A DNA stretch of 64,000 bases from Candidatus Latescibacterota bacterium (GTDB taxonomy: Bacteria > Latescibacterota > UBA2968), in contig OZ240241.1 of assembly GCA_965198115.1 (NCBI GenBank), forward strand, positions 2,496,001-2,560,000. Reading direction: 5' to 3'. Positions 1,507 to 63,928 of the stretch are shown here, one piece after another. Under the pieces are notes generated by a model. The model had not been told where the DNA came from. It ran no database searches and was given only the letters and a program-made list of their open reading frames with translations. Positions within the stretch are counted from its first letter, which is position 1. Every line of letters starts with the position of its first letter. Made by a program: the position numbers and the translations under genes.

Positions 1507-2838
1507 CTAGAACTCGCCGAAATCCTGAATGACGAGACCCGTAAATACCTTCGGATAGAAAAAGGTGGATTTGGGAGGCATGCGCTCGCCGGCCAACACC
1601 ACGTCACGCAACTGTTTCATCGATACGGGACTCAAGTAGAAGCCCGCACAACCGTCGGACCTCTTTACGAGACGCTGCACCTCAGGCTCTACCTTGATGA
1701 ACCGGACCTTCTCCCCCTTCGTCAGATCGTGGTTATCCAGATCGAGCGCTCGACCGAGGACCAGTTGCAGCAGACCCGAGTCGAGTTGTCGCCAGGCGTC
1801 GGACCGGCCATCTGGATCGAGAGCGGCCAGGTCCACCGCCTCCTTCAGGGTCAAATAAGTCACGTACCGACCCGTCCCGAAGAGCGCGGCGAGGACCGTT
1901 GCCCCGACGGCGACGCGGGTCTCGAGTTGAACCTGAACGTCATCCGTCGTCGTGAACTCGGCCTCTTCGATCTCGAACCATTCCCCCAGACGATCCCGAA
2001 GCGACGTCGCCCCTCCGTCGCCGAGATCGACGACGACGCGGTGTATCGGTTTGATCGCCATGCCTTCGTCGTCGTCCATGTTTACGAGCGTCTGCATGGA
2101 ATAGGCATAGGATCGATCATCTCTACTCCCCTGCAGCTCGAAACGATCGTCACGATAGGTCACGGCCGTCTCATACCGATGATGACCATCGGCGATGAAG
2201 AGCTCCTTGTCGACGAAAAAGGTCTGAATGTCCGCCAGTGTCGTGCGGTCGCAAACGCGCCAGAACCGATGCGTCACCCCTTCGTCATCGTCGAACTCGA
2301 ACAGGGGTTCGGCCGCCTTTTGTGGCTCCAGAAGGGCAGCCACGTGGCGACCCGGGTCGCTGAAGAGAGAGAAGATCTGTCCGAAAGCCGCCTCCGTGTG
2401 TTCCATCAGCGAAAGACGGTCGGCCTTCGGACCGGGCATCGTGTGTTCGTGGGGATAGATCTGCCCCTTCCCGAAGGGCTCAATCTCGACCAGGGCAACC
2501 AGACCCTGTCGTGTTTTCTTCGTCATGCCGCGGTGGAACTCGATGTCGAACGTCTGCTCGTAAACGTAGAACGAAGGCGCGTCGTCCTGAATCAGGTCGT
2601 CGGAAGACTTCCAGGCATCGTAGTCGGCCGCCGCACGCACGTAGCGATTGGTCGCGTCACCGTCTCCTGTTGCACCCTTTCCCTGGATGATCCGAACGAT
2701 GTTGTTCGGGTGACGATCGTAAAGTATCTGCTGGTAGGCATCGTCGATCACGTCGTAGGGCGGAGACACCACATCGCCCGCCCGAACACGATCGAGATTG
2801 AAGCGAACCCCTCTGAAGGGCCTGATTCGAGCCATCAC
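1507..2838 (-). CDS. DUF1015 family protein (ParB/Srx-like core)
   Basis: IRPFRG, PPYDVI, PHEHT, IADGHHRYETA, MPPKSTFFYPK motifs; starts 23 bp after the metH stop. Confidence 0.92.
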   Translation of the reverse strand: MMARIRPFRGVRFNLDRVRAGDVVSPPYDVIDDAYQQILYDRHPNNIVRIIQGKGATGDGDATNRYVRAAADYDAWKSSDDLIQDDAPSFYVYEQTFDIEFHRGMTKKTRQGLVALVEIEPFGKGQIYPHEHTMPGPKADRLSLMEHTEAAFGQIFSLFSDPGRHVAALLEPQKAAEPLFEFDDDEGVTHRFWRVCDRTTLADIQTFFVDKELFIADGHHRYETAVTYRDDRFELQGSRDDRSYAYSMQTLVNMDDDEGMAIKPIHRVVVDLGDGGATSLRDRLGEWFEIEEAEFTTTDDVQVQLETRVAVGATVLAALFGTGRYVTYLTLKEAVDLAALDPDGRSDAWRQLDSGLLQLVLGRALDLDNHDLTKGEKVRFIKVEPEVQRLVKRSDGCAGFYLSPVSMKQLRDVVLAGERMPPKSTFFYPKVFTGLVIQDFGEF

Positions 2839-2861: not shown

Positions 2862-5800
2862 TCATCCCGAATACGCGAGGTTCTGTCCGAGCCACTTTTC
2901 GGCTTCTTCGACCGACGTGCCCTTTCGCTCTGCGTAGGCCTCGACCTGATCGCGGCCGACCTTTCCGACCGAAAAGTAACGCGCATCGGGATGGGCAAAG
3001 TAGAAGCCACAGACTGACGCGGGCGGATCCATCGCGAAATTCTCGGTGAGTCGAACACCGATCGCCTCCTCGACCGAGAGCAACTCGAAGAGGCGCCGCT
3101 TTTCGGTATGGTCCGGGCAAGCCGGGTATCCCGGGGCCGGCCTGATCCCGCGGTATTTTTCATCTCCTCGTGCGTCAGATTCTCGTTCCGACCGTATCCC
3201 CAGTCTTTCCTGGCCTTCGCGTGAACCATCTCCGCGGTCGCCTCGGCGAATCGATCCGCCAGTGCCTGTACCAGGATCGCTGAGTAGTCGTCTCCCTCGC
3301 GCTGATACCGCGCGACGGGCGCCTCGATGCCCTTTGTCGTCACGCAAAAACCCCCCAGATAGTCCTTCGATCCACCATCGACCGGGGCAACGAAATCCGC
3401 GAGCGCATAGTAAGGGCCTCCGGAGCCCTTTTCCTGTTGCTGGCGTAGCGTGTGAAACCGTGTCCGTTCCGCGCCACGTCCTTCGTCGACATAGACAGCG
3501 ATGTCGTCACCCACACTACTGGCGGGAAAGAAACCGTAGACCGCATCGCACACCATCCAGCCTTCCTCCTTCACACGGTCCAGCATGTGCCGGGCATCGG
3601 CATACAGTTTCCTCGCCTCTTCGCCCTTGACGGGATCGTTCAACAGCGCAGGATAGCCACCACGCATTTCCCACGTGTGGAAGAAAGGGCCCCAATCGAT
3701 GAACGGCTTCACAGAATCCAGATCGATTCGCTGAAGAACCTGCGTCCCCAGGAATGTGGGGGGGCCGCTCTTCTCGAACGTCAACGAGGGTCCGTTCGTC
3801 ACGGCCTTTCGATACGGCAGGATCGGACGCCACGGCACCCCTTCCTCGAAGGCGGCCTGTTCCCTTTCCTGTTCCTCTCGGTTCGTGCGAACAAATTCGT
3901 CCCGTGTCTTCCCACCATCAACCTTCCGACGACGCCGGACGCGAGAGAGGCGTCCTTCACGTGGATCGTGGCGCGTGAATAGGCCGGCGCGATCTTAACG
4001 GCCGTATGTCTTCGGCTCGTCGTCGCACCCCCGATCAAGAGCGGAACCTCGAACCCTTCGCGCTCCATCTCCCCTGCCACGTGGACCATCTCGCGAAGCG
4101 ATGGTGTGATCAACCCGGACAGACCGACGATGTCGACAGACTCCTCACGAGCGGTCCTCAGAATCTGTTCGGCCGTGACCATCACCCCCAGGTCGACAAC
4201 GTCGTAGTTGTTACACCCCAGGACAACACCGACGATGTTCTTACCGATATCGTGCACGTCACCCTTCACAGTGGCCAGGAGCACCTTGCCACGCGATCGT
4301 CCACCACCCTCTCGCGATTCCTCTTCCATAAGCGGCTCGAGGATCGCGACCGCCTGCTTCATCACTCGCGCCGTCTTGACGACCTGAGGAAGAAACATCT
4401 TCCCCGCACCGAAGAGATCGCCCACGACGTTCATCCCGTCCATCAGCGGCCCTTCGATAATGTCCAGAGGCTTCGCATAGACCGTCAACGCCTCTGCGAC
4501 GTCCTTGTCGATGAACTCGCTTCGGCCGTGTCGCAGGGCATAGGCCAGTCGCTCCTCGAGTGTCCCGGAACGCCAGGCATCCTCCTCCTTCTTTGAATCC
4601 TTTTTACCCTGGACACGGCCCGCATAATCGACCAGCCGTTCGGTCGCATCCGGCCTGCGATTGAACAGCACATCCTGGATCAGTTTCAAAAGATCGGGCG
4701 GAATGTCCTCGTAAACCCCGAGCTGACCGGCATTCACGATGCCCATGTCCATGCCCGCGGCGATGGCGTGATACAGAAAAGCCGCGTGGATCGCTTCCCG
4801 CACCGTGTCGTTTCCCCGAAAAGAGAAGGAAATGTTACTCACACCCCCACTGATCTTCACGAGCGGCATGCGTGCTTTGATCTGCCTCGTCGCCTCGATG
4901 AAGTTGACCGCGTAGTCGTTGTGTTCCTCGATTCCCGTCGCGACGGTCAGGATGTTCGGATCGAAAATGATGTCGGTCGGATCCATCCCGACATCGTCGG
5001 TCAGGATGCCATACGCCCGTTCGCAGATTTCGACCTTCCTGTCGATCGACGTGGCCTGCCCCTCTTCGTCGAAAGCCATGACGACGACCGCAGCCCCGTA
5101 ACGTCGACAGATATCGGCGCCGCGCCGAAACGCCTCTTCACCCTCCTTCAAGCTGATGGAGTTCACGATCGCCTTCCCCTGAACGCACTTCAGCCCGGCG
5201 ACGATCACGTCGAAGTCGGAACTGTCGATCATGATCGGCACGCGCGAGATGTCGGGCTCGGACGCTATCAGGTTCAAAAAGCGTGTCATCACCGCGGGTG
5301 AGTCGAGCATGCCCTCATCCACGTTCACGTCGATGATGTTGGCCCCGCCTTCGACCTGGTCGCGCGCGATGTCCAGCGCCGTCCCGTAGTCCTCGTTCTT
5401 GATCAATCGGGCGAACCGACGCGACCCAGTCACGTTCGTTCGCTCACCGATCATCACGAAGTTCGTGTCGGGGCGAATCGTCAGGGGTTCCAGACCGCTG
5501 TAACGCGTCAGACGCTCCCGGGGAGGTGGACGCCTCACGGGTTTGCCCTCCATCGCCTGGCAGATCGCCTGGATGTGTTCGGGCGTCGTACCGCAACAGC
5601 CGCCAACCAGATTGAGCCATCGTTCGTCCGCGAAGGACGAAAGCACCTCCGCCATGTGCTGGGGGGTGTCGTCGTACTCCCCGAACTCATTCGGAAGCCC
5701 CGCATTCGGGTAGCAGCTGACGAAGATGTCGCTGCACGCGGCCAGTGCCTCCACATACGGACGCATCTCGGTCGCACCCAGTGCACAATTGATCCCGACG

Positions 5801-6522
5801 CACAACGGATCGACGTGAGCGACCGACTCCCAGAATGCCTCGACCGTTTGCCCCGACAACGTCCGCCCGCTCTGATCCGTGACCGTCACCGAGATCATCA
5901 GCGGAATACGTCTGCCCCCGTCACGGAAGTACTGCTCGATCCCGTAGAGCCCGGCCTTGAGGGTCAGCGTATCGAACACCGTTTCGACGAGCAGCAGATC
6001 CACGCCGCCGTCACCCAGCCCGCGAACCTGGTCGTAGTAGGCGGCCACGACCTCGTCGAACGTCCTCGATCGGTAGCCCGGGTCGTTGACGTCGGACGAC
6101 AGGGAGAGGGTGCTGTTCGTCGGACCCACGCCACCCGCCACGAACCGTGGGCGCTCCGTCGACGCGTCGAACCCATCGACCGCCCTTCTGGCGATCTGCG
6201 CGGCCGCAAGATTCAGGGCGTAGGCCCGATCGGCCAATCCATAGTCCGCCAGGGAAATGGCCGTCGAGCTGAAGCTGTTCGTCTCGATGACATCCGACCC
6301 GGCCTCCAGGAACCCCCGATGTATCTCTTCCACCGTTTCGGCGTTGGAGATAACCAGAGCCTCGTTGCACTCGGTCAGATCGCTGGGATGGTCGCAGAAC
6401 ACCTGACCACGGAAGTCCCGCTCTTCGAATTCGTAGGACTGGACCATCGTGCCCATCGCGCCGTCGAGGATCAGGATCCGGTCCTCGAGCAGTGCGCGAA
6501 GTTGTTGTTCGGTCTGAGTCAT
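2862..6522 (-). CDS. metH: Cobalamin-dependent methionine synthase (two frameshifts, at about 3915 and 3165)
   Basis: [41 protein letters not shown] (B12 His), then the activation domain [10 protein letters not shown] and [16 protein letters not shown] across three ORFs; ATG at 6522. Confidence 0.96.
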
Positions 6523-6560
6523 AAATTCTGAGGGAACGACGTCGGGTTCGTTCTGAATAG

Positions 6561-6604
6561 AAAAAAGAAACGCCTGGGCGCGCATCGTGATGGGTGCCCA
6601 GGCG
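6561..6604 (-). terminator. Intrinsic terminator (riboswitch expression platform)
   Basis: Stem CGCCUGGGC...GCCCAGGCG followed by UUUCUUUUUU; the 5' arm is part of aptamer P3; about 40 nt before the metH ATG. Confidence 0.88.
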
Positions 6605-6668
6605 GTCGGCTGCCTCTCGCTGCTACTTCCACGTAGTCGATTCCACTCATCCGCCAGTCGCAGCAGCG
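6595..6668 (-). ncRNA. ZMP/ZTP (pfl) riboswitch aptamer
   Basis: RNA reads CGCUGCUGC GACUGGCGGAUGA GUGG AAUCGA CUAC GUGGAA GUAGCAGCG AGAGGCA GCCGACCGCCUGGGCA. It has a 9-bp P1, the conserved GACUGGCG, a short P2, and the P3 GCCGACCGCCUGGGC whose loop can form the pseudoknot with GGCG. Confidence 0.9.
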
Positions 6669-6708
6669 TCGCCACACGAGGTGGCGATTTTTGTGATCGG
6701 GGGTTCTA

Positions 6709-8061
6709 TCAGCCGGCGGCTTCCTTCCGCTTTTGCGCTTCAACGCGTTTTGCGAAGGCCTTTTTCATGTTTTCGTCGACGCGCTTGCCCTTCGTCGCCT
6801 CACGGCGCTCGGAAACCTGCGCCTGGACCGAGGCGACCTTGTTCTTTTCTTCTTCGGGCTTTTGGTCGTCTCGGAGACGCTGGCCGATAGCCACGAGCAG
6901 CTTCCGGTAGGTGTTGTGATCCTCCGCGTTCGGATGAAGCGTGAACGGCGGCATGAACTTGAGCCCCAGACCGTTCCGACGCTTCTTCGGGTCCATCTCC
7001 TGAATCAGGTCCCTCGGGAAAATCTGGAACGCGATTCTTTCCTTTGGCGGATCTGCTTCTTGAATGTTTCCGAGCGTGAGCGGCAGGAAAATATCGATTT
7101 CCTTGCCCGCCTTCTGTGCGAATGTGCGCACGAGCAGCTCTTTGACTTCGTCGGAGATTTCGAAGTGAAGCAGGAAACCGATGAAGGAGTTCAACTCCAT
7201 CAGGTGGTCATTCGGTTTCTTATAATGAGAGGGCAACATCTTATCGTGCTCGATGCCGGCCAGGAGCGACCCTGGCGTGAACAGGTTGATCTGATCTACC
7301 CCGAAATCGATCAACTGAACGTTCTCGATCGTCTTCAGGTGGTCCTTGCTTTCCATATCTTCGAGGTGCTTGTAGATGTCATCCTGAATGCCCTCGAAAT
7401 AGTCGGCTACTTTCTTGGCCCACATGCCACCACCCGAAATACAATACAGCTTCGTCTTGAAAATGTAGGGGGCAAAATCTTCTGCGTTGAAGGATTCAGG
7501 CGCATTCGGGAAGCAAGTCAGCTTGTCGACGCGCAGCTGAACGACCTCTTCGCCCTGACGGATTCCGTTCTCGCCTAATTTCTTTTCTGTCAACTCACGC
7601 GAGCCCACCCAATGCTTCCCCGTCTTGTGATCGGGAACGAACAGGGCCTCTTGCAGGAACGTGCAGGCCGCGGTGAAGTAGAGCTCGTTGCCACCGGCGG
7701 CCGCCAGGGGCAGACTGTAGGAAACCTCGACCTTCTCGCCGGCTTCGAGCGGGTTGTCGGCAGGTATGAAATTTCCGCCCGGGAGGGCTTTGGGACGCGC
7801 CACGACGAGAACGGGCCTGGGTCCGCTCTTGAAGTTCATCACCTGAAGCGTGTTGATGGAGCCCGTGCCGCGGCCGGCGAGCAGGGATGCGGCTTTGAGC
7901 TTGATTCTCGCCACGCTGCTCTGAACCGGCGCGTCTCTGATTCCCTTGAGGAGCGTGCCGAGCTGTTCGGGCTTGGAGAAAACCTGAACTCGTTCCCAGT
8001 TGATCCCAGCCTTCTTGGCTTTTTTCGCTGGTGCTTTCTTTTTCCCACCAAAGAGTGCCAT
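6709..8061 (-). CDS. Hypothetical Lys-rich protein, about 450 aa
   Basis: Long ORF with protein-like composition; likely start ATG 8061; sigma70 promoter upstream. Confidence 0.8.
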   Translation of the reverse strand: MALFGGKKKAPAKKAKKAGINWERVQVFSKPEQLGTLLKGIRDAPVQSSVARIKLKAASLLAGRGTGSINTLQVMNFKSGPRPVLVVARPKALPGGNFIPADNPLEAGEKVEVSYSLPLAAAGGNELYFTAACTFLQEALFVPDHKTGKHWVGSRELTEKKLGENGIRQGEEVVQLRVDKLTCFPNAPESFNAEDFAPYIFKTKLYCISGGGMWAKKVADYFEGIQDDIYKHLEDMESKDHLKTIENVQLIDFGVDQINLFTPGSLLAGIEHDKMLPSHYKKPNDHLMELNSFIGFLLHFEISDEVKELLVRTFAQKAGKEIDIFLPLTLGNIQEADPPKERIAFQIFPRDLIQEMDPKKRRNGLGLKFMPPFTLHPNAEDHNTYRKLLVAIGQRLRDDQKPEEEKNKVASVQAQVSERREATKGKRVDENMKKAFAKRVEAQKRKEAAG

Positions 8062-8118: not shown

Positions 8119-8147
8119 AACTTAAAAACCACTCGGTGGAGTGTCAA
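8119..8147 (-). promoter_or_regulatory. sigma70-type promoter
   Basis: TTGACA-N17-TAAGTT. Confidence 0.55.
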
Positions 8148-10070: not shown

Positions 10071-10779
10071 GGTCGTTTCCCCTGTAGAGATGTTCGCCTG
10101 CGATGAGTATCGTCTTGGTGTCCTCCACACCCGCAAACTCATCGACAGCGTGGAAGCCGAAAGTCATGCTCATACGCGTCTCCGTCGTCGTGTTCGTCCC
10201 GATGCGGTGGTAAATGAGACTGTCGAGCAGGAGCAGACCACCTGGGGGCATCGGCACCGGCACCGACTGATCGAGGAGGCCGGATGCAGCGATGACTGGA
10301 TCGTCCCCCACGCCTCTGCCCGGATCCAGACCAGGCCAGAAGTGGGACCCGGGTACGACGCACGTAGATCCGTTCTCGACTGTCGTCCGTTCCAGAAAGA
10401 AGATGATCGTCACAATGGCACGGGTCCATTGCAGGTTGTCGCGATGGAACGCATCCGGCCGAATGTCGGAGGGGTTGAATGTCAGGTGGTTGTGCCGGTT
10501 CCGTCGGACGACAATGTTGGGCCCGAGCACCGAACGAAGCGGCTCGACGACGACGGGCAACCGGATCGACCGCTCGAAGATCGGATCGCGCTCGAGCGCC
10601 TTCGACAACCGCACGCCCCTCCCCTTTTCGTTCCGCACGACGGGTTCGACCTCCCGGGCAAGATGGTCGTACGCCAGGTTCCGGAGCTCTTCCACGAGGT
10701 TATCCGGTAGCCGGTCCCGGAGTTTCAAGTATCCGTTGTGCCTGAACAGACGGATCTCTTGGGGCGAAAGCTCAGCCAC
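10063..10779 (-). CDS. Phytanoyl-CoA dioxygenase (PhyH) family Fe(II)/2OG oxygenase
   Basis: F..NGYL, HRD, ENG.T.VVPGSH, distal H followed by N..R; GTG 10779. Confidence 0.9.
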   Translation of the reverse strand: MAELSPQEIRLFRHNGYLKLRDRLPDNLVEELRNLAYDHLAREVEPVVRNEKGRGVRLSKALERDPIFERSIRLPVVVEPLRSVLGPNIVVRRNRHNHLTFNPSDIRPDAFHRDNLQWTRAIVTIIFFLERTTVENGSTCVVPGSHFWPGLDPGRGVGDDPVIAASGLLDQSVPVPMPPGGLLLLDSLIYHRIGTNTTTETRMSMTFGFHAVDEFAGVEDTKTILIAGEHLYRGNDRG

Positions 10780-11793
10780 GGATCTCCTCGACCTGTAGAA
10801 TTGCGAATCGGAGTCGTTCGTAAGGTCCCTCGTCGCCACACTCGTAAAGACAGCCCACGCGATCGTCCGGCAGAGCGACGAGGTCCGAGTAGGCAGCTGG
10901 ACCGGCGTATAAGACGAAACCTCCGGTCCAGGAGCCGCCGCCGTCGTCACTGAATTTGAGCGTCATCTTTTCACGATCTGTGCTGGCCAGGTTCGAGAAA
11001 ACGAGCCCATCGGCGACCTCGACCAGACTGGCCTGACAGATCGGCTCGATCAGCGCATCTTCCTTCCGAAACCCCGAAAACGTCTCACCCGCGTCCGAAC
11101 TCCACGCAACACCCCGCGCGTTCCAGCCGCGGTAATTTCGACAGTTGATATAAACGCGGTCGTCCTCGAGAAGCGCAACGGCGCATTCGTTTGTCCCTTC
11201 ATCCACGATTCCCCCAATGCTCCAGGTCTCGCCACCGTCGTCGCTCACGATGACGTGCGAATGATACGGGTCGGCCTGGCGGTCGAAATAGACCCCCACC
11301 ATGTGGTCGCAAGGGATGACCAGGCGGCCCGAAGGCAATTGGATGCCGTGACCCGGGCCGGTCGCATACCAGGTCCAGGCCGCGTCCTTCGCCTCCGCCG
11401 TCACCTCCTGAGGCGATGACCAGGATGCGCCGTCGTCGCTGCGGGAGACCCAGACCGTTCGGGGTCCACGCCCCTCGGTGATCCCGTCTCCCCGATATCG
11501 CCGATGTTTTTACAAAAAGTCAGGACAACGCGACCGGACTCGTGGTCGACCACGGGACAGGGGTTCCCACACGTCATGCCCGCTTCCGTCACGACGACCC
11601 GGGAATCCGACCACGTATCCCCGCCGTCATCACTCCACCGGGACAGCAAATCGATCAGACCGGTGTCGCTTTGGCTGTCACGCCGCCCCTCGCAGAAGGC
11701 CAGGAGACGACCCGATGGGGATGCTGCCAGCGCCGGGATCCGATAGGTGTGATAGTCACCCTCGCCGCTCACCCAGAGATCCAGATCTCTCAC
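10772..11793 (-). CDS. GH33 sialidase-family protein without signal peptide (frameshift at about 11485)
   Basis: YRIP motif, four Asp boxes (SDDGG.TW), TGPGHGIQL, NECA, AYSDL, LYE. Confidence 0.9.
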
Positions 11794-13150: not shown

Positions 13151-14348
13151 TTACCCGAGTAGGGTCAGCGCGTTCTGCGGGAGGACGTTGGCCTGCGCCA
13201 GCAGGGCCGTCGTCGACTGCGTCAGAATCTGCGCCGTCGTGAACTCGGTGACCTCGAGCGGGACATCGGCATCACGGATGCCTGATTCGGAGGCCGTGTT
13301 GTTCTCGATCGAGTTTTCCTGGTTGCGGAGGGTGTGACCCATGCGATTCTGGAAAGCACCCAGATCGCCTCGAACCTGTGCAACGTTCGTAATCGCCAGC
13401 TCGAGCGTCGAAATCGCGGCCTGAGCAGACGGCTGCGTCGTGATCGACAAGGTGCCGAGGTTCAGGAAGGCACCTGACGCCCGCAGATCGCGAATGTTCA
13501 CCTCGATGCGGTTGGTAGAGGCGTCATCGGGGCCAATCTGGAACTGTCCACCCGTGCCAGAGTTGACGACGAAGGTCAAACCATCTAGATCGCCATCGCG
13601 GTAGCCGTCCGTGGCCGGGTTGATCCCCTCAGCCGCCTTCACACCGCTCAGCGTCAGCGACACGCCGATACGGTCGAAATTCGCGATGATCGACGATCCC
13701 GTCGCCACCACGCCACCGGTGCCGGCGTCGGCATCGAGGGCCGAACCGATGTCGATGGTTTGGGTGACGGTACCGTTGCCCCAGCGTGATCTGGTTATCC
13801 GTCGCGACGCTGTCGATGAAGGTGTAGGTTCCGGCCTGCGCGGACGAGATCGAGGCAGTGAGCAGACCCGTCGTGGGAGAGGCCAGAGACGTGGAGACCG
13901 TGGGATCCTTGTCGACCGTGTTACCGAACCCGGTCAGGATCACCTGATTGTTGTAGGACGTAACGTTCGCGATTCGATCGATTTCATTCGCGAGCTGGAC
14001 GACCTCGGCGTTGAGCGACTCTCGGTTCGTGTTGTTGATCGTCGACGATGCCGACGCAACAGCGAGTTCACGCATCCGGATGAGCATGGCGCTCACCTCG
14101 TTCAGCGCGCCTTCGGCCGTTTGGATCAGGTTGATCGCTTGCTCCGTGTTTCGGTTGGCCTGCATCATGCCGCCAATTTCGGCGCGCATCCCTTCCGAAA
14201 CACTGAGTCCGGAGGCGTCATCCGCCGCCCGGTTGATCTTCAGACCCGACGAAAGACGTTCGAGCCGCATCGCCAGGTTTTTGTTGTTAATCTTCCCGAT
14301 CCGTTGAACGTTGATGGATGGGACGTTGGTGTTGACTCTGAGTGGCAT
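13151..14348 (-). CDS. fliC: Flagellin (frameshift at about 13780)
   Basis: N-terminus RVNTN..ERLSSGLKINRAADDASGL; C-terminus RGDLGAFQNR..SGIRDAD..AQANVLPQNALTLLG; RBS AAGGAGG. Confidence 0.96.
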
Positions 14349-14353
14349 CAAAA

Positions 14354-14632: not shown

Positions 14633-16261
14633 CCTGAATTATGCATAAAAAAGGTAGTCTCCTTGTACAAGTGTTTGTTTTTCCCTACATTAGGGCTGAC
14701 ACATCAAAACAACACTTGGAAGGAACTACCGTGATAGAACCTAGTCAGATCCGGTTACCATTCGCAAGCATTTCGGGCAAGGTAGTTGAGGCTGATTTTG
14801 CCGGTGGCGCCGTCAGGAGTGACGGTGGAGTTCTGTTGCTTCGCGCCCTTGAGTCTCAGATGGGATTGATCGCCAGAATGGTAGATGCTTTGCGAGATCG
14901 TCGTCACCCAAGCTATATCGATCACACGCTTTTGGATCTTGTGAAGCAGCGTGTTTTTCAGATCGCTTGCGGCTATGAAGATGCCGTCGATTGTGATGAT
15001 TTGCGCCACGATCCGGGCGTCAAGGCTGCCTGCGATCGGCTTCCTCTTTCCGGTCCTGATCTCGGGAGCCAATCAACGATGACACGACTTGAGAATGATG
15101 TGCGACGCTCGGATTTGTATCGGCTCGCACGGGCTTTTGTAGACGGGTTCATCGCATCGTATGACCAGGCACCCCCAAGCATCATTCTCGATATCGACGA
15201 CACGGATGACCCAACGCACGGTGCGCAACAATTTTCACTCTTCAACGCGTATTACAATGAACACTGCTATATGCCGCTACATATCTATGAAGGCCAAAGC
15301 GGCAAGCTCATTACGACGATCTTGAGACCCGGGCATCCGACGAACGGTAAACAGGTCGTTTCTATTCTCAAGCGCTTGGTGGAACACCTACGCGGATCTT
15401 GGCCAAACGTGGAGATCATCGTTCGCGCAGACTCAAAGTTCAGCTCACCAGAGATGCACGATTTCTGCGAAGACAACGGTATCTACTACGTTCTGGGCCA
15501 GGGCGCCAACTCCAAGCTCAAAGCGGCTGGACAAAACCTGATGGACCAAGCGCTACGTCTGAGCGAGCATAAGGAGACGATTCGCTTGTTCTCATCCTTC
15601 TCATATCAGGCTGGCACCTACCGGTAGCCTCGCCGGATCATTCACAAGGCTGAAGTCACAAACGGCGAAGCAAATCCAAGATACCGCGTGACCAATTTAC
15701 AGAGTAATCGAGACGGCTTTATCTATGATCGTATCTACTGCGCAAGGGGACGCACGGAAGGCTTCATCAAGGACCACAAAACATTCCTTCACTCCGATCG
15801 AACATCGTGCCACAAGTTTGAAGCCAACCAGTTCCGACTCTTTCTACACAGTGCTGCATACGCCTTGCTTCACGCACTCCGATCACAGGGACTCAAGGGC
15901 ACCGCGTGGACCAAACCTCAGGTCAACACGATACAGAACCGTTTCCTCAAAATCGGCGCGAGAGTCATTGAAAGCGCACGAAGAATCCGATTCCATTTTC
16001 CAACATCGTATCCACTCAAAAACGTCTTGGTGTCAATCATCACCAGGCTCGAAACGAACACGCAGTAACAACGCCGATCTATACCGGGGACAGCTATGTA
16101 CACGTCGCAAAACAACACCTGTTCCGGACGAAAATCGTGACTCTTGCGACTCGTAGAGACCGCTTACGGGACCTTGGACATCCGAAGAAGCCGAGAACAA
16201 ATCCTGTGCGTGATCACATCACTCCAAAACAACCTAAACTCAAATTCATGCATGATTCAGG
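14633..16261 (+). mobile_element. IS1380-family insertion sequence
   Basis: IRs CCTGAATTATGCATAAA / CCTGAATCATGCATGAA (15/17); 4-bp target duplication CTAA at 14629-14632 and 16262-16265; lower GC than flanks. Confidence 0.93.
14641..16068 (+). pseudogene. IS1380 DDE transposase with an in-frame TAG at 15625-15627
   Basis: SDGG, GYED..D...LRHDP, LDIDDTDD.THG.QQ, RADS, Y..RG..E..IK motifs; both ORFs in the same frame; start could be GTG 14731. Confidence 0.9.
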
Positions 16262-48825: not shown

Positions 48826-49860
48826 GTGGAAACAGACCAAAGGGTCCCCGAAAGCTCCAGTATCCTCACAACCACGGTCGGGTCCTATCCCCTGCCGGAA
48901 TGGGTGATCGCGGCGCCCAGCGAGTCCGCCATCGTCGACGCTACACGTGTCATTCTGGACACCCAACGCCAGGGCGGCATCGATCTCCCGACCGATGGTG
49001 AGATCTATCGCTTCGACATCAACCACCCCGAAACCAACGGGATGATCGAATACTTCGTCCGTCCCATGGGTGGTACGCGAGATGACTTTGGACGGAGCGA
49101 GATCGAAGAATTCGCGGAAAAACAGACGATGGGGTTCCGTTCAAAACCGGCCGCCGTCGTCGACGAGGCACTCAACGAAGGCACCCTCGACCTCTTGACG
49201 GACTGTGCAAGGGCCGCCGACATCTCCGGAGGCCCGTTCAAGTTCACGCTCACGAGTCCGTACATGCTTGCCAGAACACTGCTCGACCATCACTACGGTG
49301 ATTTCGAAGCACTCCTGATGGGCGTGGCAGACGTCCTCGCCGCCCAGGTACGCGACCTGCCCTGCGCGTGTCTTCAGGTCGATGAAGCCAACATCCCGGG
49401 AAACCCCGACGACGGTCCGATCGCGGCCAGAGCAATCAACCGTGTCCTCGATGCCGTGTCTGACGGGACCGAGAGAGCCGTCCACTTCTGCTTCGGGAAC
49501 TACGGGGGCCAGGTCATCCAGAGCGGTACCTGGTCGGCCCTCGTTGACTTCCTGAACGACCTTCACGCGGACCACCTCGTGCTCGAAATCGCCCATCGTC
49601 CTAAGAGCGATCTCGAGGCGCTCAAGGAAGTTGACGGGAACATCAAACTCGGCATCGGCGTCGTAGACATCAAAGTCAACCACGTCGAGACAGCCGACGA
49701 GATCGCATCCCGGATCGAGGAAACGGAAAAAGTCGTGGGCCCCGGTCGTATCAGATACATTCATCCCGACTGTGGATTCTGGATGCTCAAACGCTCCGTC
49801 GCAGACCGCAAAATCGCCGCGCTGGCCCCCGGACGCGATCGGTATCTCGGTCTGTCCTGA
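48826..49860 (+). CDS. Cobalamin-independent methionine synthase family, single-barrel 'core' type
   Basis: TVGSYP, TDGE, QVDE, HFCFGN, E, PDCG Zn ligands; 344 aa, no N-terminal folate barrel. Confidence 0.88.
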   Translation: METDQRVPESSSILTTTVGSYPLPEWVIAAPSESAIVDATRVILDTQRQGGIDLPTDGEIYRFDINHPETNGMIEYFVRPMGGTRDDFGRSEIEEFAEKQTMGFRSKPAAVVDEALNEGTLDLLTDCARAADISGGPFKFTLTSPYMLARTLLDHHYGDFEALLMGVADVLAAQVRDLPCACLQVDEANIPGNPDDGPIAARAINRVLDAVSDGTERAVHFCFGNYGGQVIQSGTWSALVDFLNDLHADHLVLEIAHRPKSDLEALKEVDGNIKLGIGVVDIKVNHVETADEIASRIEETEKVVGPGRIRYIHPDCGFWMLKRSVADRKIAALAPGRDRYLGLS

Positions 49861-61302: not shown

Positions 61303-62304
61303 CTATTTCCCTTCGTTTCGATCGAGTGCGACGCGGAAGCTGGCGATGTGGTCCGGGCCGGTTCCGCAGCACCCGCCGACAATCGAGGCACCCTCTGATA
61401 CCAGAGCAGCGAGATCGAGCGCCATGTCGTCCGGTGTTTGGGAATAGGTCGTTTCCATCTCCTTATTCAGTGTCGGCATCCCCGCATTGGGATAGGCGAC
61501 GATACGGTCGGGGCCTTCGCGGCCGGCAATCGCCTCCTTGGTCTGGCGGGTCCCCTCGATCGCGTAGGCCATACCGGTATGCTCGACAAGCTGCGTCTCG
61601 GCACCGCAGTTCAGACCCACTACGTCGACATACGGCAGCAAATTTTCGCCATCGGAGAACTTTCCCGAGGCAAGCGCATCGATCAACGTCTGCGGAGAAT
61701 GCCCCCAGTCGGTTCGGTAAACGATGTCCCCGGTCTTCCGGTCCTTCGTGCTCTTGTAAGTCATACTGACCGCGATCGGCAGACCGTGTCTGCGCGCCTC
61801 ATCCACTGCAATCGCAGCTTCGTTCGCCGAAAACTGCGTCTCGATCATGAAAAAGTCGACGCCACCCTCGGCCAATGCTCCGGAAAGCCGCGCGTGGGCG
61901 TCACGAACCTTCTCGTTTGCAATGCCGAACACGGTATCGCCGCTATCCGCCTCGATGGCCCCAGGGGATGGCCCTATCGACCCACCGACGTAGACGTCCG
62001 CACCACTCGCATCCACCGCCTTCCGCGCGTGCTCGGCCGCCTGCCGCGCGATGTCGTCGGCCGCCGAGCCCGTTCGATCGGCCATCTCCAGATGAAGCGC
62101 ACTTGCCACGAACGTGTTCGTCCCCACGGCCTCCGACCCGGCGTCGATGTAAGCCCTGTGTATCTCCCGAACCGCGTCGGGATGGGAGTCGTTCGCGATC
62201 GTGCTGTTGACCAGCTCGATCCCTCTTGCGAACAGCTGAGATCCGAATCCGCCATCGTAGAGCAGCGGCCGAGAATCGGTCAATCGCTCCCTGAATACTC
62301 GCAT
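61303..62304 (-). CDS. Stand-alone homocysteine S-methyltransferase domain protein
   Basis: YDGGFGSQL, TNTF, GSIGP, IETQ, GLNCG, YPNAG, GGCCGTGPDHI. Confidence 0.9.
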   Translation of the reverse strand: MRVFRERLTDSRPLLYDGGFGSQLFARGIELVNSTIANDSHPDAVREIHRAYIDAGSEAVGTNTFVASALHLEMADRTGSAADDIARQAAEHARKAVDASGADVYVGGSIGPSPGAIEADSGDTVFGIANEKVRDAHARLSGALAEGGVDFFMIETQFSANEAAIAVDEARRHGLPIAVSMTYKSTKDRKTGDIVYRTDWGHSPQTLIDALASGKFSDGENLLPYVDVVGLNCGAETQLVEHTGMAYAIEGTRQTKEAIAGREGPDRIVAYPNAGMPTLNKEMETTYSQTPDDMALDLAALVSEGASIVGGCCGTGPDHIASFRVALDRNEGK

Positions 62305-62311
62305 ACAGTCC

Positions 62312-63928
62312 TCAGTCGAAGTCGATCGGTTTGAACTGACACCCGTCGACGAAGACATCGAAAAAATCCGGTGTCGTTTCCAACTCGACGTGCTCGATGT
62401 CACGAACGTCCTTCTCGAGCTTTCGCTGAGTTTTTTGCGAGAGCAACGTCTCTCGAGCCCCCTGGAGCGCTGCGTTCCCGATCTTCACGATTCGATCCGA
62501 CGGTACCGGCGCAAGGAACCCGATCTCGATGGCGTTGGCCGCATTCACGTAATTCGCGAACCCACCCGCCAGATACAGACAATCGATCTCCTCCGGCCGC
62601 ACGCCGAAGTGACGCATCGCGATGAACTGGCCGCACGTGTTGGCTGCCTTGGCCTGGGCGAGGATGCTCGCATCCTCCCGAGAGAACGTGATTCCTTCGT
62701 CCTCTTCGATCGTCAGCTCGTATTGCTTGTCCTCGAAGACGCCCTTTTCCGTCATTCGGCCGTGACGTCTCAGTTCAGCCAGCAGATCCACCATACCCGA
62801 TCCACAGATCCCTGTCGGGGTCTGACCGTCGATCGTGCTGCACGCATAGCGGTCGCCCTCGATTCGAACCGACTCGATCGCCCCGGGGTAGCCCGGCATT
62901 CCGTAGCGCACACCGCCACCTTCGAATGCGGGACCCGCCGGACAGGATGCTGCAATCATCCGATCGCCTGTACCCACGACCACCTCCGTGTTGGTACCGA
63001 CATCGACCAGCATAAACACCGAGGTCGATGTGAACGCATCGATCGCCACGAGCGCGGCCGCTGTGTCGGCCCCCACGTGACTCGACACCAACGGCAAACC
63101 ATACGCACGTGCCCTGGGATTCACGCGAATACCCATCCTCCTCGTGCTCATCGCGAGGGCAGTTGTATCGACCTCGCCATCGATCAGCGCGTGCTCCGTC
63201 GTCGACTTGTAGGGCCGCTGACCAATCGTCTGTACGTCCAGCCGAAAGATCAGATCCCGCATCGTAGAATTGCCCGCGATCGCGATCTCATAGATCTCCT
63301 GACGGGTGAACTGGAATCGATCGCACAATGCTTCGATTTCATCATTGATGGCGGCGGTGATGGCTTTCCATAGCTCCCCGTGATGAGGCCCACCGTCGTA
63401 GGAAATCCTGTTCATCACATCGCTGCCGCCGAAGCGTTGAGGATTTCCGAATGAACTGATCGCCACCACGTCGCCCGTTAGAAGGTCGACCAACTCCATC
63501 ACCACCGTCGTCGTACCCAAGTCGATCGCCAAACCATAAACGTGTCCGCGATACGTGTCGATCGCCTCCCCTTGCAGCAGAACGTCATCCCCATCCAGAA
63601 CGACAGCCTGATCCATCTGCACCGATCGACGATCCGTCTGCTCAAGAATCTTCGGCTCCCGACGCAGGGGGGTGATCACCAGATTCGCGTCATCCGCCTC
63701 GATCACGGCCTGGCAGGACAGCCGATATCCTTCACCGAGGAAGGACTCTAATGGGCCCTTCGGCGATAACGCCTCTCCCCCTTCGAGCACTTCCACGGCA
63801 CACTCGTGACAGGACGCGGTCCTTCCGCACGACGTGGCCAAACGGATTTCCATTACGTCGGCGTGATCGAACACCGTTCGGCCGATCAAGAGTTTCGAAG
63901 TCTTCGCTTCGCACTTCATCGAGCCCAT
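62312..63928 (-). CDS. RamA/RACo-type ATP-dependent corrinoid activator (2Fe-2S + ASKHA, DUF4445)
   Basis: CG..SC.EC..RLSC, DLGTTT, NPQ.FG.DV..RI, GN.TM, DVGTNTE, AGPAFEG, GICGSG, LAGGF, GNAAL.GA. Confidence 0.92.
   Translation of the reverse strand: MGSMKCEAKTSKLLIGRTVFDHADVMEIRLATSCGRTASCHECAVEVLEGGEALSPKGPLESFLGEGYRLSCQAVIEADDANLVITPLRREPKILEQTDRRSVQMDQAVVLDGDDVLLQGEAIDTYRGHVYGLAIDLGTTTVVMELVDLLTGDVVAISSFGNPQRFGGSDVMNRISYDGGPHHGELWKAITAAINDEIEALCDRFQFTRQEIYEIAIAGNSTMRDLIFRLDVQTIGQRPYKSTTEHALIDGEVDTTALAMSTRRMGIRVNPRARAYGLPLVSSHVGADTAAALVAIDAFTSTSVFMLVDVGTNTEVVVGTGDRMIAASCPAGPAFEGGGVRYGMPGYPGAIESVRIEGDRYACSTIDGQTPTGICGSGMVDLLAELRRHGRMTEKGVFEDKQYELTIEEDEGITFSREDASILAQAKAANTCGQFIAMRHFGVRPEEIDCLYLAGGFANYVNAANAIEIGFLAPVPSDRIVKIGNAALQGARETLLSQKTQRKLEKDVRDIEHVELETTPDFFDVFVDGCQFKPIDFD

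Follow-up and report, generated by a model that had tools for sequence, protein, structure and literature searches.

The window analysed here, a stretch of 64,000 nucleotides of the genome that we call G000, contains on its minus strand a predicted unit that starts with a conserved gene (orf450) and runs, across a ZMP/ZTP riboswitch and its terminator, into metH and a gene of the SerBK family (Table 1). The other genomes, cited by G numbers, are relatives from the same class, probably Latescibacterota.

Table 1. Coordinates of the features discussed in the text (window positions, unless a locus prefix L is given).
Feature	Position	Strand	Basis
Predicted sigma-70-type promoter, TTGACA - 17 nt - TAAGTT	8119..8147	-	Read from sequence
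orf450, conserved 450-aa gene, first of the unit	6709..8061	-	ORF
ZMP/ZTP riboswitch aptamer (RF01750)	6589..6671	-	Rfam covariance model
Intrinsic terminator, formed in part from the pseudoknot strand and the P3 3' strand	6561..6604	-	Folding versus shuffles
metH, fused B12-dependent methionine synthase, likely pseudogene	2862..6522	-	Domains spread over three frames
DUF1015 (SerBK family) gene, intact, single copy	1507..2838	-	PF06245, 277.5 bits
Homocysteine methyltransferase, RACo activase, corrinoid protein, MtaA/CmuA-family methyltransferase and 210-aa gene	Window 61303-63928, on to L290:8509-13123		
thrC, then SAM-II riboswitch, then cystathionine gamma-synthase	L340:5309-7974		Closest to PDB 1i41

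A reading made earlier from the sequence only had called a full pfl/ZTP aptamer in front of metH and had named a search with the Rfam pfl/ZMP-ZTP covariance model as a way to check it. That search returned a significant, full-length match (model positions 1-86) on the minus strand at 6671-6589, with 55.4 bits for a gathering score of 39 and an E-value of 2.8e-6. It is the sole Rfam match in the window. The aptamer comprises helices P1 (6668-6660 with 6626-6618), P2 (6646-6643 with 6636-6633) and P3 (6610-6608 with 6598-6596), and a pseudoknot between GGCG in J1/2 (6655-6652) and CGCC in the P3 loop (6604-6601). Both conserved stretches, ACUGGCG and GCCGACCGCCUGGGC, are found in it. Over the eight syntenic aptamers, which are kin and not independent, 92.5% of the helix cells are paired, a level reached by none of 500 shuffles and to be compared with 32-44% for slid controls. 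Six of the nine P1 pairs have both sides changed among these copies, and the pseudoknot cells are paired at 96.9%, with pairs that are nearly invariant. The window aptamer has kept all its pseudoknot and P3 pairs, and its P1 is better paired than that of its congener.

The 3' part of the aptamer is shared with a hairpin in which CGCCUGGGC (6604-6596) pairs perfectly over 9 bp with GCCCAGGCG (6579-6571), followed by UUUCUUUUUU (6570-6561). This hairpin has a folding energy of -22 kcal/mol (z -4.11, with none of 200 shuffles as good), versus -4.2 kcal/mol for P3 by itself, and it ends 38 nt before the metH ATG (6522). A simple terminator scan missed it because the loop limit of the scan is 8 nt. 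The U-tailed terminator overlapping P3, as had been proposed from the letters, is thus confirmed by folding, and its competition with P3 and the pseudoknot supports the transcriptional ON-switch layout. The same overlap is shared by all seven metH-type ZTP copies. As described in the accessible part of PMC10085676, the pfl ZTP switch of Clostridium beijerinckii is built likewise from P1-J1/2-P2, P3 and a pseudoknot, and its invader strand forms a terminator by annealing to the pseudoknot and to the 3' side of P3, unless ZMP is bound. The window invader differs in being perfectly complementary across 9 bp. Since perfect invaders reduce the ON state (PMC10085676), a tighter switch can be predicted here. 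No other riboswitch (SAM, SAH or B12) was detected at metH, either in the window or in six other ZTP-metH loci. A small hairpin may also form at 6667-6688, immediately before P1, followed by a plus-strand T run; a comparable hairpin is possible in G001 only.

The switch is intercistronic and lies about 1.45 kb downstream of a conserved predicted promoter. This position had escaped the sequence-only reading, as had serBK and the split of metH over three frames. TTGAC(A/T) with a -10-like hexamer is present before orf450 in all six relatives inspected too; the promoter at 8147-8119 is absent from a promoter scan demanding 4/6 matches in each hexamer. The orf450 product has no Pfam or NCBIfam family and no usable Atlas match. 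Its homologues, 56-92% identical, are encoded directly upstream of the switch or of metH in seven relatives. The gene is kept across two families and comes first wherever this operon has it. In all seven metH-type cases the aptamer starts 9-38 nt past the orf450 stop. A sigma-70-like promoter at most 90 nt before the aptamer was seen in 26 of 26 glyA, 21 of 23 purH-type and 17 of 27 folD cases, and in none of the seven metH, three folC and one dehydrogenase cases. Considering the aptamers close behind orf450, the promoter before that gene and the lack of a nearer one, we infer that the switch acts mid-transcript, even if weak promoters could exist in the 3' end of orf450. A long ORF running from 6675 through the aptamer was considered as the start of metH and discarded: relatives use the start codon equivalent to 6522, and other genomes have this frame closed. 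The genus g6 retains the order orf450-metH-serBK without the switch. In genus g4, metH is located behind another gene, also without the switch, and serBK is not adjacent to it. In G035, the place taken by orf450 in the relatives, upstream of the ZTP switch, is occupied by non-coding DNA of about 490 nt (L119:2738-3225).

The gene that follows the terminator encodes a fused MetH (TIGR02082, 1314.6 bits for a cut-off of 1010.85) with homocysteine, folate, cap, cobalamin and activation domains (PF02574, PF00809, PF02607, PF02310 and PF02965). It contains GINC at 243, GGCCGT at 307 and GDVHDIG at 754, which we take to be the zinc-cysteine and DxHxxG motifs of MetH. Compared with its homologues, the gene lacks about 1 nt near 3915 and about 7 nt near 3160, so that the activation domain is cut off. 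Contigs from the public runs X1 and X2, from which the assembly may derive and whose library type is not on record, span both breaks without a gap or a differing letter; in the public run X3, from another sample, short contigs span each break with the same letters. When compared with G001, 17 of 138 orthologous ORFs of G000 are broken, metH among them, and the other 16 are accessory or unknown-function genes. Among the 56 ORFs of the rpoB region, the six that were flagged are two galactose genes, one unclear case and three antisense shadows. None of 32 core information genes, hand-picked from the list for this region, is broken, versus 3.1 expected (P about 0.04). The genome carries about 400 IS copies (228 ISL3, 136 IS256-type, 18 IS1380-like and 17 IS3-like). 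Because three runs reproduce the frameshifts and the genome is so loaded with IS, metH is likely a pseudogene in G000, and we hold its pseudogenisation to be quite probably real. Plain assembly errors are a rather unlikely cause of the frameshifts in view of the X1-X3 letters, the intact core genes and the IS load. The damage is not confined to G000: in the G001 assembly metH has a 1.2-kb internal loss, and in that of G052 it is frameshifted. As assembled, the gene is broken in three of the seven ZTP cases and whole, with 1218-1232 aa, in the other four. A MetH tree, from which 2 of 10 rows were dropped, leaves its deep fork open and so gives no order of events. The IS expansion and the many broken accessory genes of G000 are also seen in the window at 14641-16068, 13151-14351 and 10772-11793; by eye, one flagellin and one sialidase gene of the window are split.

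How common is a ZTP switch before metH? A search with RF01750 over 61 genomes of the class gave 88 matches in 36 of them, with 86 matches over cut-off. According to family names taken from the annotation of 15 representatives, the first downstream gene is folD in 27 cases, glyA in 26, AICAR transformylase in 23, metH in 7, folC in 3 and a 2-hydroxyacid dehydrogenase in 1, one match being followed by a contig end. The seven metH cases belong to four genera and two families. Of the 61 genomes, 38 have a fused metH, with a match over cut-off in all but G001; among the 31 outside the ZTP cases, 28 have readable upstream DNA, and none of these 28 is preceded by a riboswitch. A pattern scan of 46 of the 64 parts of a species-genome collection gave at least 120 stretches, of which 3 are true ZTP-metH cases and 117 are not. 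All three are of this lineage, being titled Latescibacterota (2) and Gemmatimonadetes (1). The same kind of scan on metagenomes yielded 20 stretches, 2 of them true, both of this lineage, and 18 not. As the patterns demand exact motifs spaced by about 90-150 nt, and two of the seven known cases would escape them, rarity is shown for this layout only. In a phylum-wide draw, RF01750 matched in 33 of 151 genomes, and in the sole new genome the switch precedes an AICAR transformylase-like gene. The ZTP-metH arrangement is thus rare and lineage-bound.

The count of downstream genes proposed by the sequence-only reading therefore does show an uncommon target, at 7 of 88, but the pairing put forward as its headline has been in print since 2010. 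Weinberg et al. (2010, PMC2864571), in the part available, name metH among the genes of the pfl RNA, with the same THF-conversion rationale. The riboswitch class and its pairing with metH are already known, and the headline is not new. Our literature searches on ZTP with metH or methionine synthase, and on Latescibacter with riboswitches, found no paper devoted to the pairing, and in the available part of PMC9481103 metH occurs only in another context. The window element resembles the pfl motif of Weinberg et al. in its full model match, the terminator over its 3' part and its one-carbon gene context. It differs in that it stands between operon genes instead of in a 5' leader driven by a promoter of its own, and in that its unit includes serBK. 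The mid-operon ZTP position and the metH-serBK unit were not found described in the literature searched.

The serBK gene starts 23 nt past the metH stop, is the only PF06245 match in G000, and is located downstream of the switch at all eight syntenic loci. SerB (TIGR00338) has no match in G000 and is over cut-off in none of 21 genomes. A 320-aa 2-hydroxyacid dehydrogenase, which scores 166.6 bits and thus below the SerA cut-off of 454, is encoded beside serBK, on its upstream side, at four of the eight loci and is absent from that of G000. A preprint (GapMind 2026, bioRxiv 10.1101/2024.10.14.618325) reports, in its available part, that one DUF1015 protein complemented E. coli serB. The family was named SerBK and proposed to be a serine kinase working in both directions, the synthetic one being called thermodynamically unfavourable. 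DUF1015 is not mentioned in the accessible part of PMC5764234. The window gene is comparable to the SerBK case in its PF06245 membership, in that SerB was not found and in the 2-hydroxyacid dehydrogenase that adjoins it in four relatives; it is different in having no serC beside it and in its place after metH under a ZTP switch. The DUF1015 gene is likely serine-supplying, although SerBK may run towards serine use. A ZTP/glycine tandem controlling a serine-synthesis gene has been described (PMC9481103, partial text). The likeness is that ZTP switches on serine supply for 10-formyl-THF; the differences are that the window lacks a glycine aptamer and that its serine gene is serBK, behind metH.

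This published control, together with the G035 locus, where the switch is followed by the dehydrogenase and serBK without metH or orf450, could mean that the switch is really aimed at the serine genes, with metH as a passenger between the switch and serBK. The breakage of metH in three of the seven ZTP cases, with serBK whole in G000, points the same way. However, metH is the first gated gene and is intact in four of the seven cases, genus g6 lacks the switch but has kept the gene order, G002 has a split serBK, and MetH has a folate rationale of its own. We regard this explanation as unlikely, but as metH is lost or broken at four of the eight syntenic loci, serBK remains a rival main target.

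Regarding methionine synthesis, metF, metK and ahcY are intact in G000, where full MetE, MetA, MetX and fhs were not found. The survey of the class found MetA in 4, MetX in 2 and PF01837 in none of the 61 genomes, and MetQ was found in none of five genomes. The scarcity of MetA and MetX had suggested that homocysteine is not synthesised at all, an idea that was dropped when a gamma-synthase gene gated by a SAM-II switch (42.9 bits, cut-off 36) was found adjoining thrC. The best solved match of its product is the cystathionine gamma-synthase 1i41, presumably the plant enzyme using O-phosphohomoserine. SAM control in G000 would therefore sit at the homocysteine step, not at metH. SAM-I was found in none of five genomes, with 150 candidates scored per genome, and a cobalamin switch is present elsewhere in G000, before a gene that by eye resembles a TonB-dependent receptor. 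In Proteobacteria metH is regulated by MetJ, MetR, SahR or an SAH riboswitch, as stated in the available part of PMC4239095. The enzyme family is the same, but the signal at the window locus would be purine/folate stress, with SAM sensed on the cystathionine gamma-synthase gene.

A further group of genes, at the end of the window (Table 1) and including a homocysteine methyltransferase, is a candidate folate-free corrinoid methionine synthase. It resembles the split methionine synthase systems presented in PMC12478193 (partial text), with the difference that the G000 cluster has no folate-binding partner; the only methyl-THF-binding methyltransferase domain found in this genome is in metH. The cluster is present in all four relatives tested, including G004, whose metH has no switch. 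The homocysteine methyltransferase domain has 10 matches (8 loci) in G000 and the short MetE domain 9 (7 loci), and short MetE-like genes are found in 57 of the 61 genomes. The corrinoid cluster and the short MetE-like genes occur with and without the switch, and so do not track it. None of 11 stand-alone homocysteine methyltransferase or short MetE-like proteins reaches an NCBIfam cut-off. One short MetE-like gene (PF01717), also below all NCBIfam cut-offs, lies on the plus strand of the window at 48826-49860.

These genes bear on the stronger claim of the sequence-only reading, according to which MetH is mainly a valve releasing THF and other enzymes make methionine. Its THF-release logic agrees with the intact metF and with the recycling of 5-methyl-THF to THF by MetH, MTHFR being irreversible in vivo (PMC5070874, partial text). 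For this MetH it is doubtful, the gene being twice frameshifted in three runs. A supply of methionine by other enzymes is possible, and would be needed if metH is dead in G000, which would leave the task to the corrinoid cluster and the other candidates listed above or to uptake. The poor scores of the stand-alone candidates, the lack of a full MetE, the cluster in the switchless G004, the near ubiquity of short MetE-like genes and the confinement of methyl-THF binding to metH all speak against this stronger claim, which we consider quite improbable.

Other ZTP elements of G000 raise the question of whether the whole regulon is decaying. Its other full ZTP switch stands before a copy of the AICAR transformylase gene with two frameshifts, the letters of which are reproduced in X1 and X2; an intact copy exists elsewhere in the genome. 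The elements before glyA, the second AICAR transformylase copy and folC are degenerate. Given also the 400 or so IS copies and a broken metH that could be polar on serBK, the switch could be a relic that controls nothing useful. Such a relic would hardly be expected to show the preserved pseudoknot and P3, the well-paired P1 and the perfect terminator stem described above, with serBK intact and single-copy behind it, and we find this very improbable.

The explanation that we favour, with a probability of roughly 0.6, is that a predicted ON switch between orf450 and metH gates metH and serBK as a one-carbon rescue unit when 10-formyl-THF is short. Low 10-formyl-THF stalls AICAR transformylase, which raises ZMP/ZTP (PMC9481103, partial text). 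Transcription would begin at the promoter before orf450. With the ligand absent, the 3' arm would invade P3 and the pseudoknot, and termination would occur at 6570-6561. With ZMP or ZTP bound, the pseudoknot would be stabilised, the terminator would fail and the polymerase would continue into metH and serBK. MetH could then free the THF trapped as 5-methyl-THF, and SerBK, with the 2-hydroxyacid dehydrogenase in four relatives, could supply serine, the one-carbon donor of GlyA. The glyA gene, too, follows a ZTP switch in 26 matches. Methionine synthesis would be under SAM control further upstream, at the plant-type cystathionine gamma-synthase. In relatives with an intact metH, MetH likely serves both methionine synthesis and THF release; in G000 metH is likely dead, which would leave serBK for the switch to serve. 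Against this explanation, the link between ZTP and metH is dispensable, as no ZTP switch precedes any of the 28 fused metH genes outside the seven cases whose upstream DNA could be read. Moreover, no MTHFR match at E 1e-30 was found in G050-G052, three of the seven, or in G002, so that a methyl trap is less obvious there.

A more complete picture, in which SAM gates homocysteine supply at the plant-type cystathionine gamma-synthase, the intercistronic ZTP switch gates metH and serBK for folate rescue, and G000 with its dead metH takes its methionine from the folate-free corrinoid system, is tentative and has in our view somewhat less than an even chance of being right in all its parts. If the rescue unit is real, it would be nature's own sensor of the methylfolate trap in bacteria, and a clean, conserved case of MetH under folate-stress instead of methionine control. 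Its regulation would also be evidence that SerBK, an enigmatic kinase family, works towards serine synthesis. The association of ZTP with serBK offers a testable hint at the direction in which the family runs physiologically, a point left open by those who described SerBK.

A few features of the remaining ZTP elements can be added. At the G000 loci of the intact AICAR transformylase (L303, C1 about 4310000-4310200) and of folC (L305, 329300-329460), neither of which has an Rfam match, only the 3' GCCUGGG part and a terminator are seen, and at L303 a different hairpin takes the place of the 5' part. In genus g2 (L085:225-2210, L075 and L087), a ZTP switch stands before a folC gene whose product is extended at the C-terminus by about 250 residues, for which no Pfam match was obtained. 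The element before glyA in G000 (L300:13112-13211), at 31.9 bits below cut-off and with ACGGGCG for ACUGGCG, has its own promoter and terminator, and is either a decayed copy or a variant.
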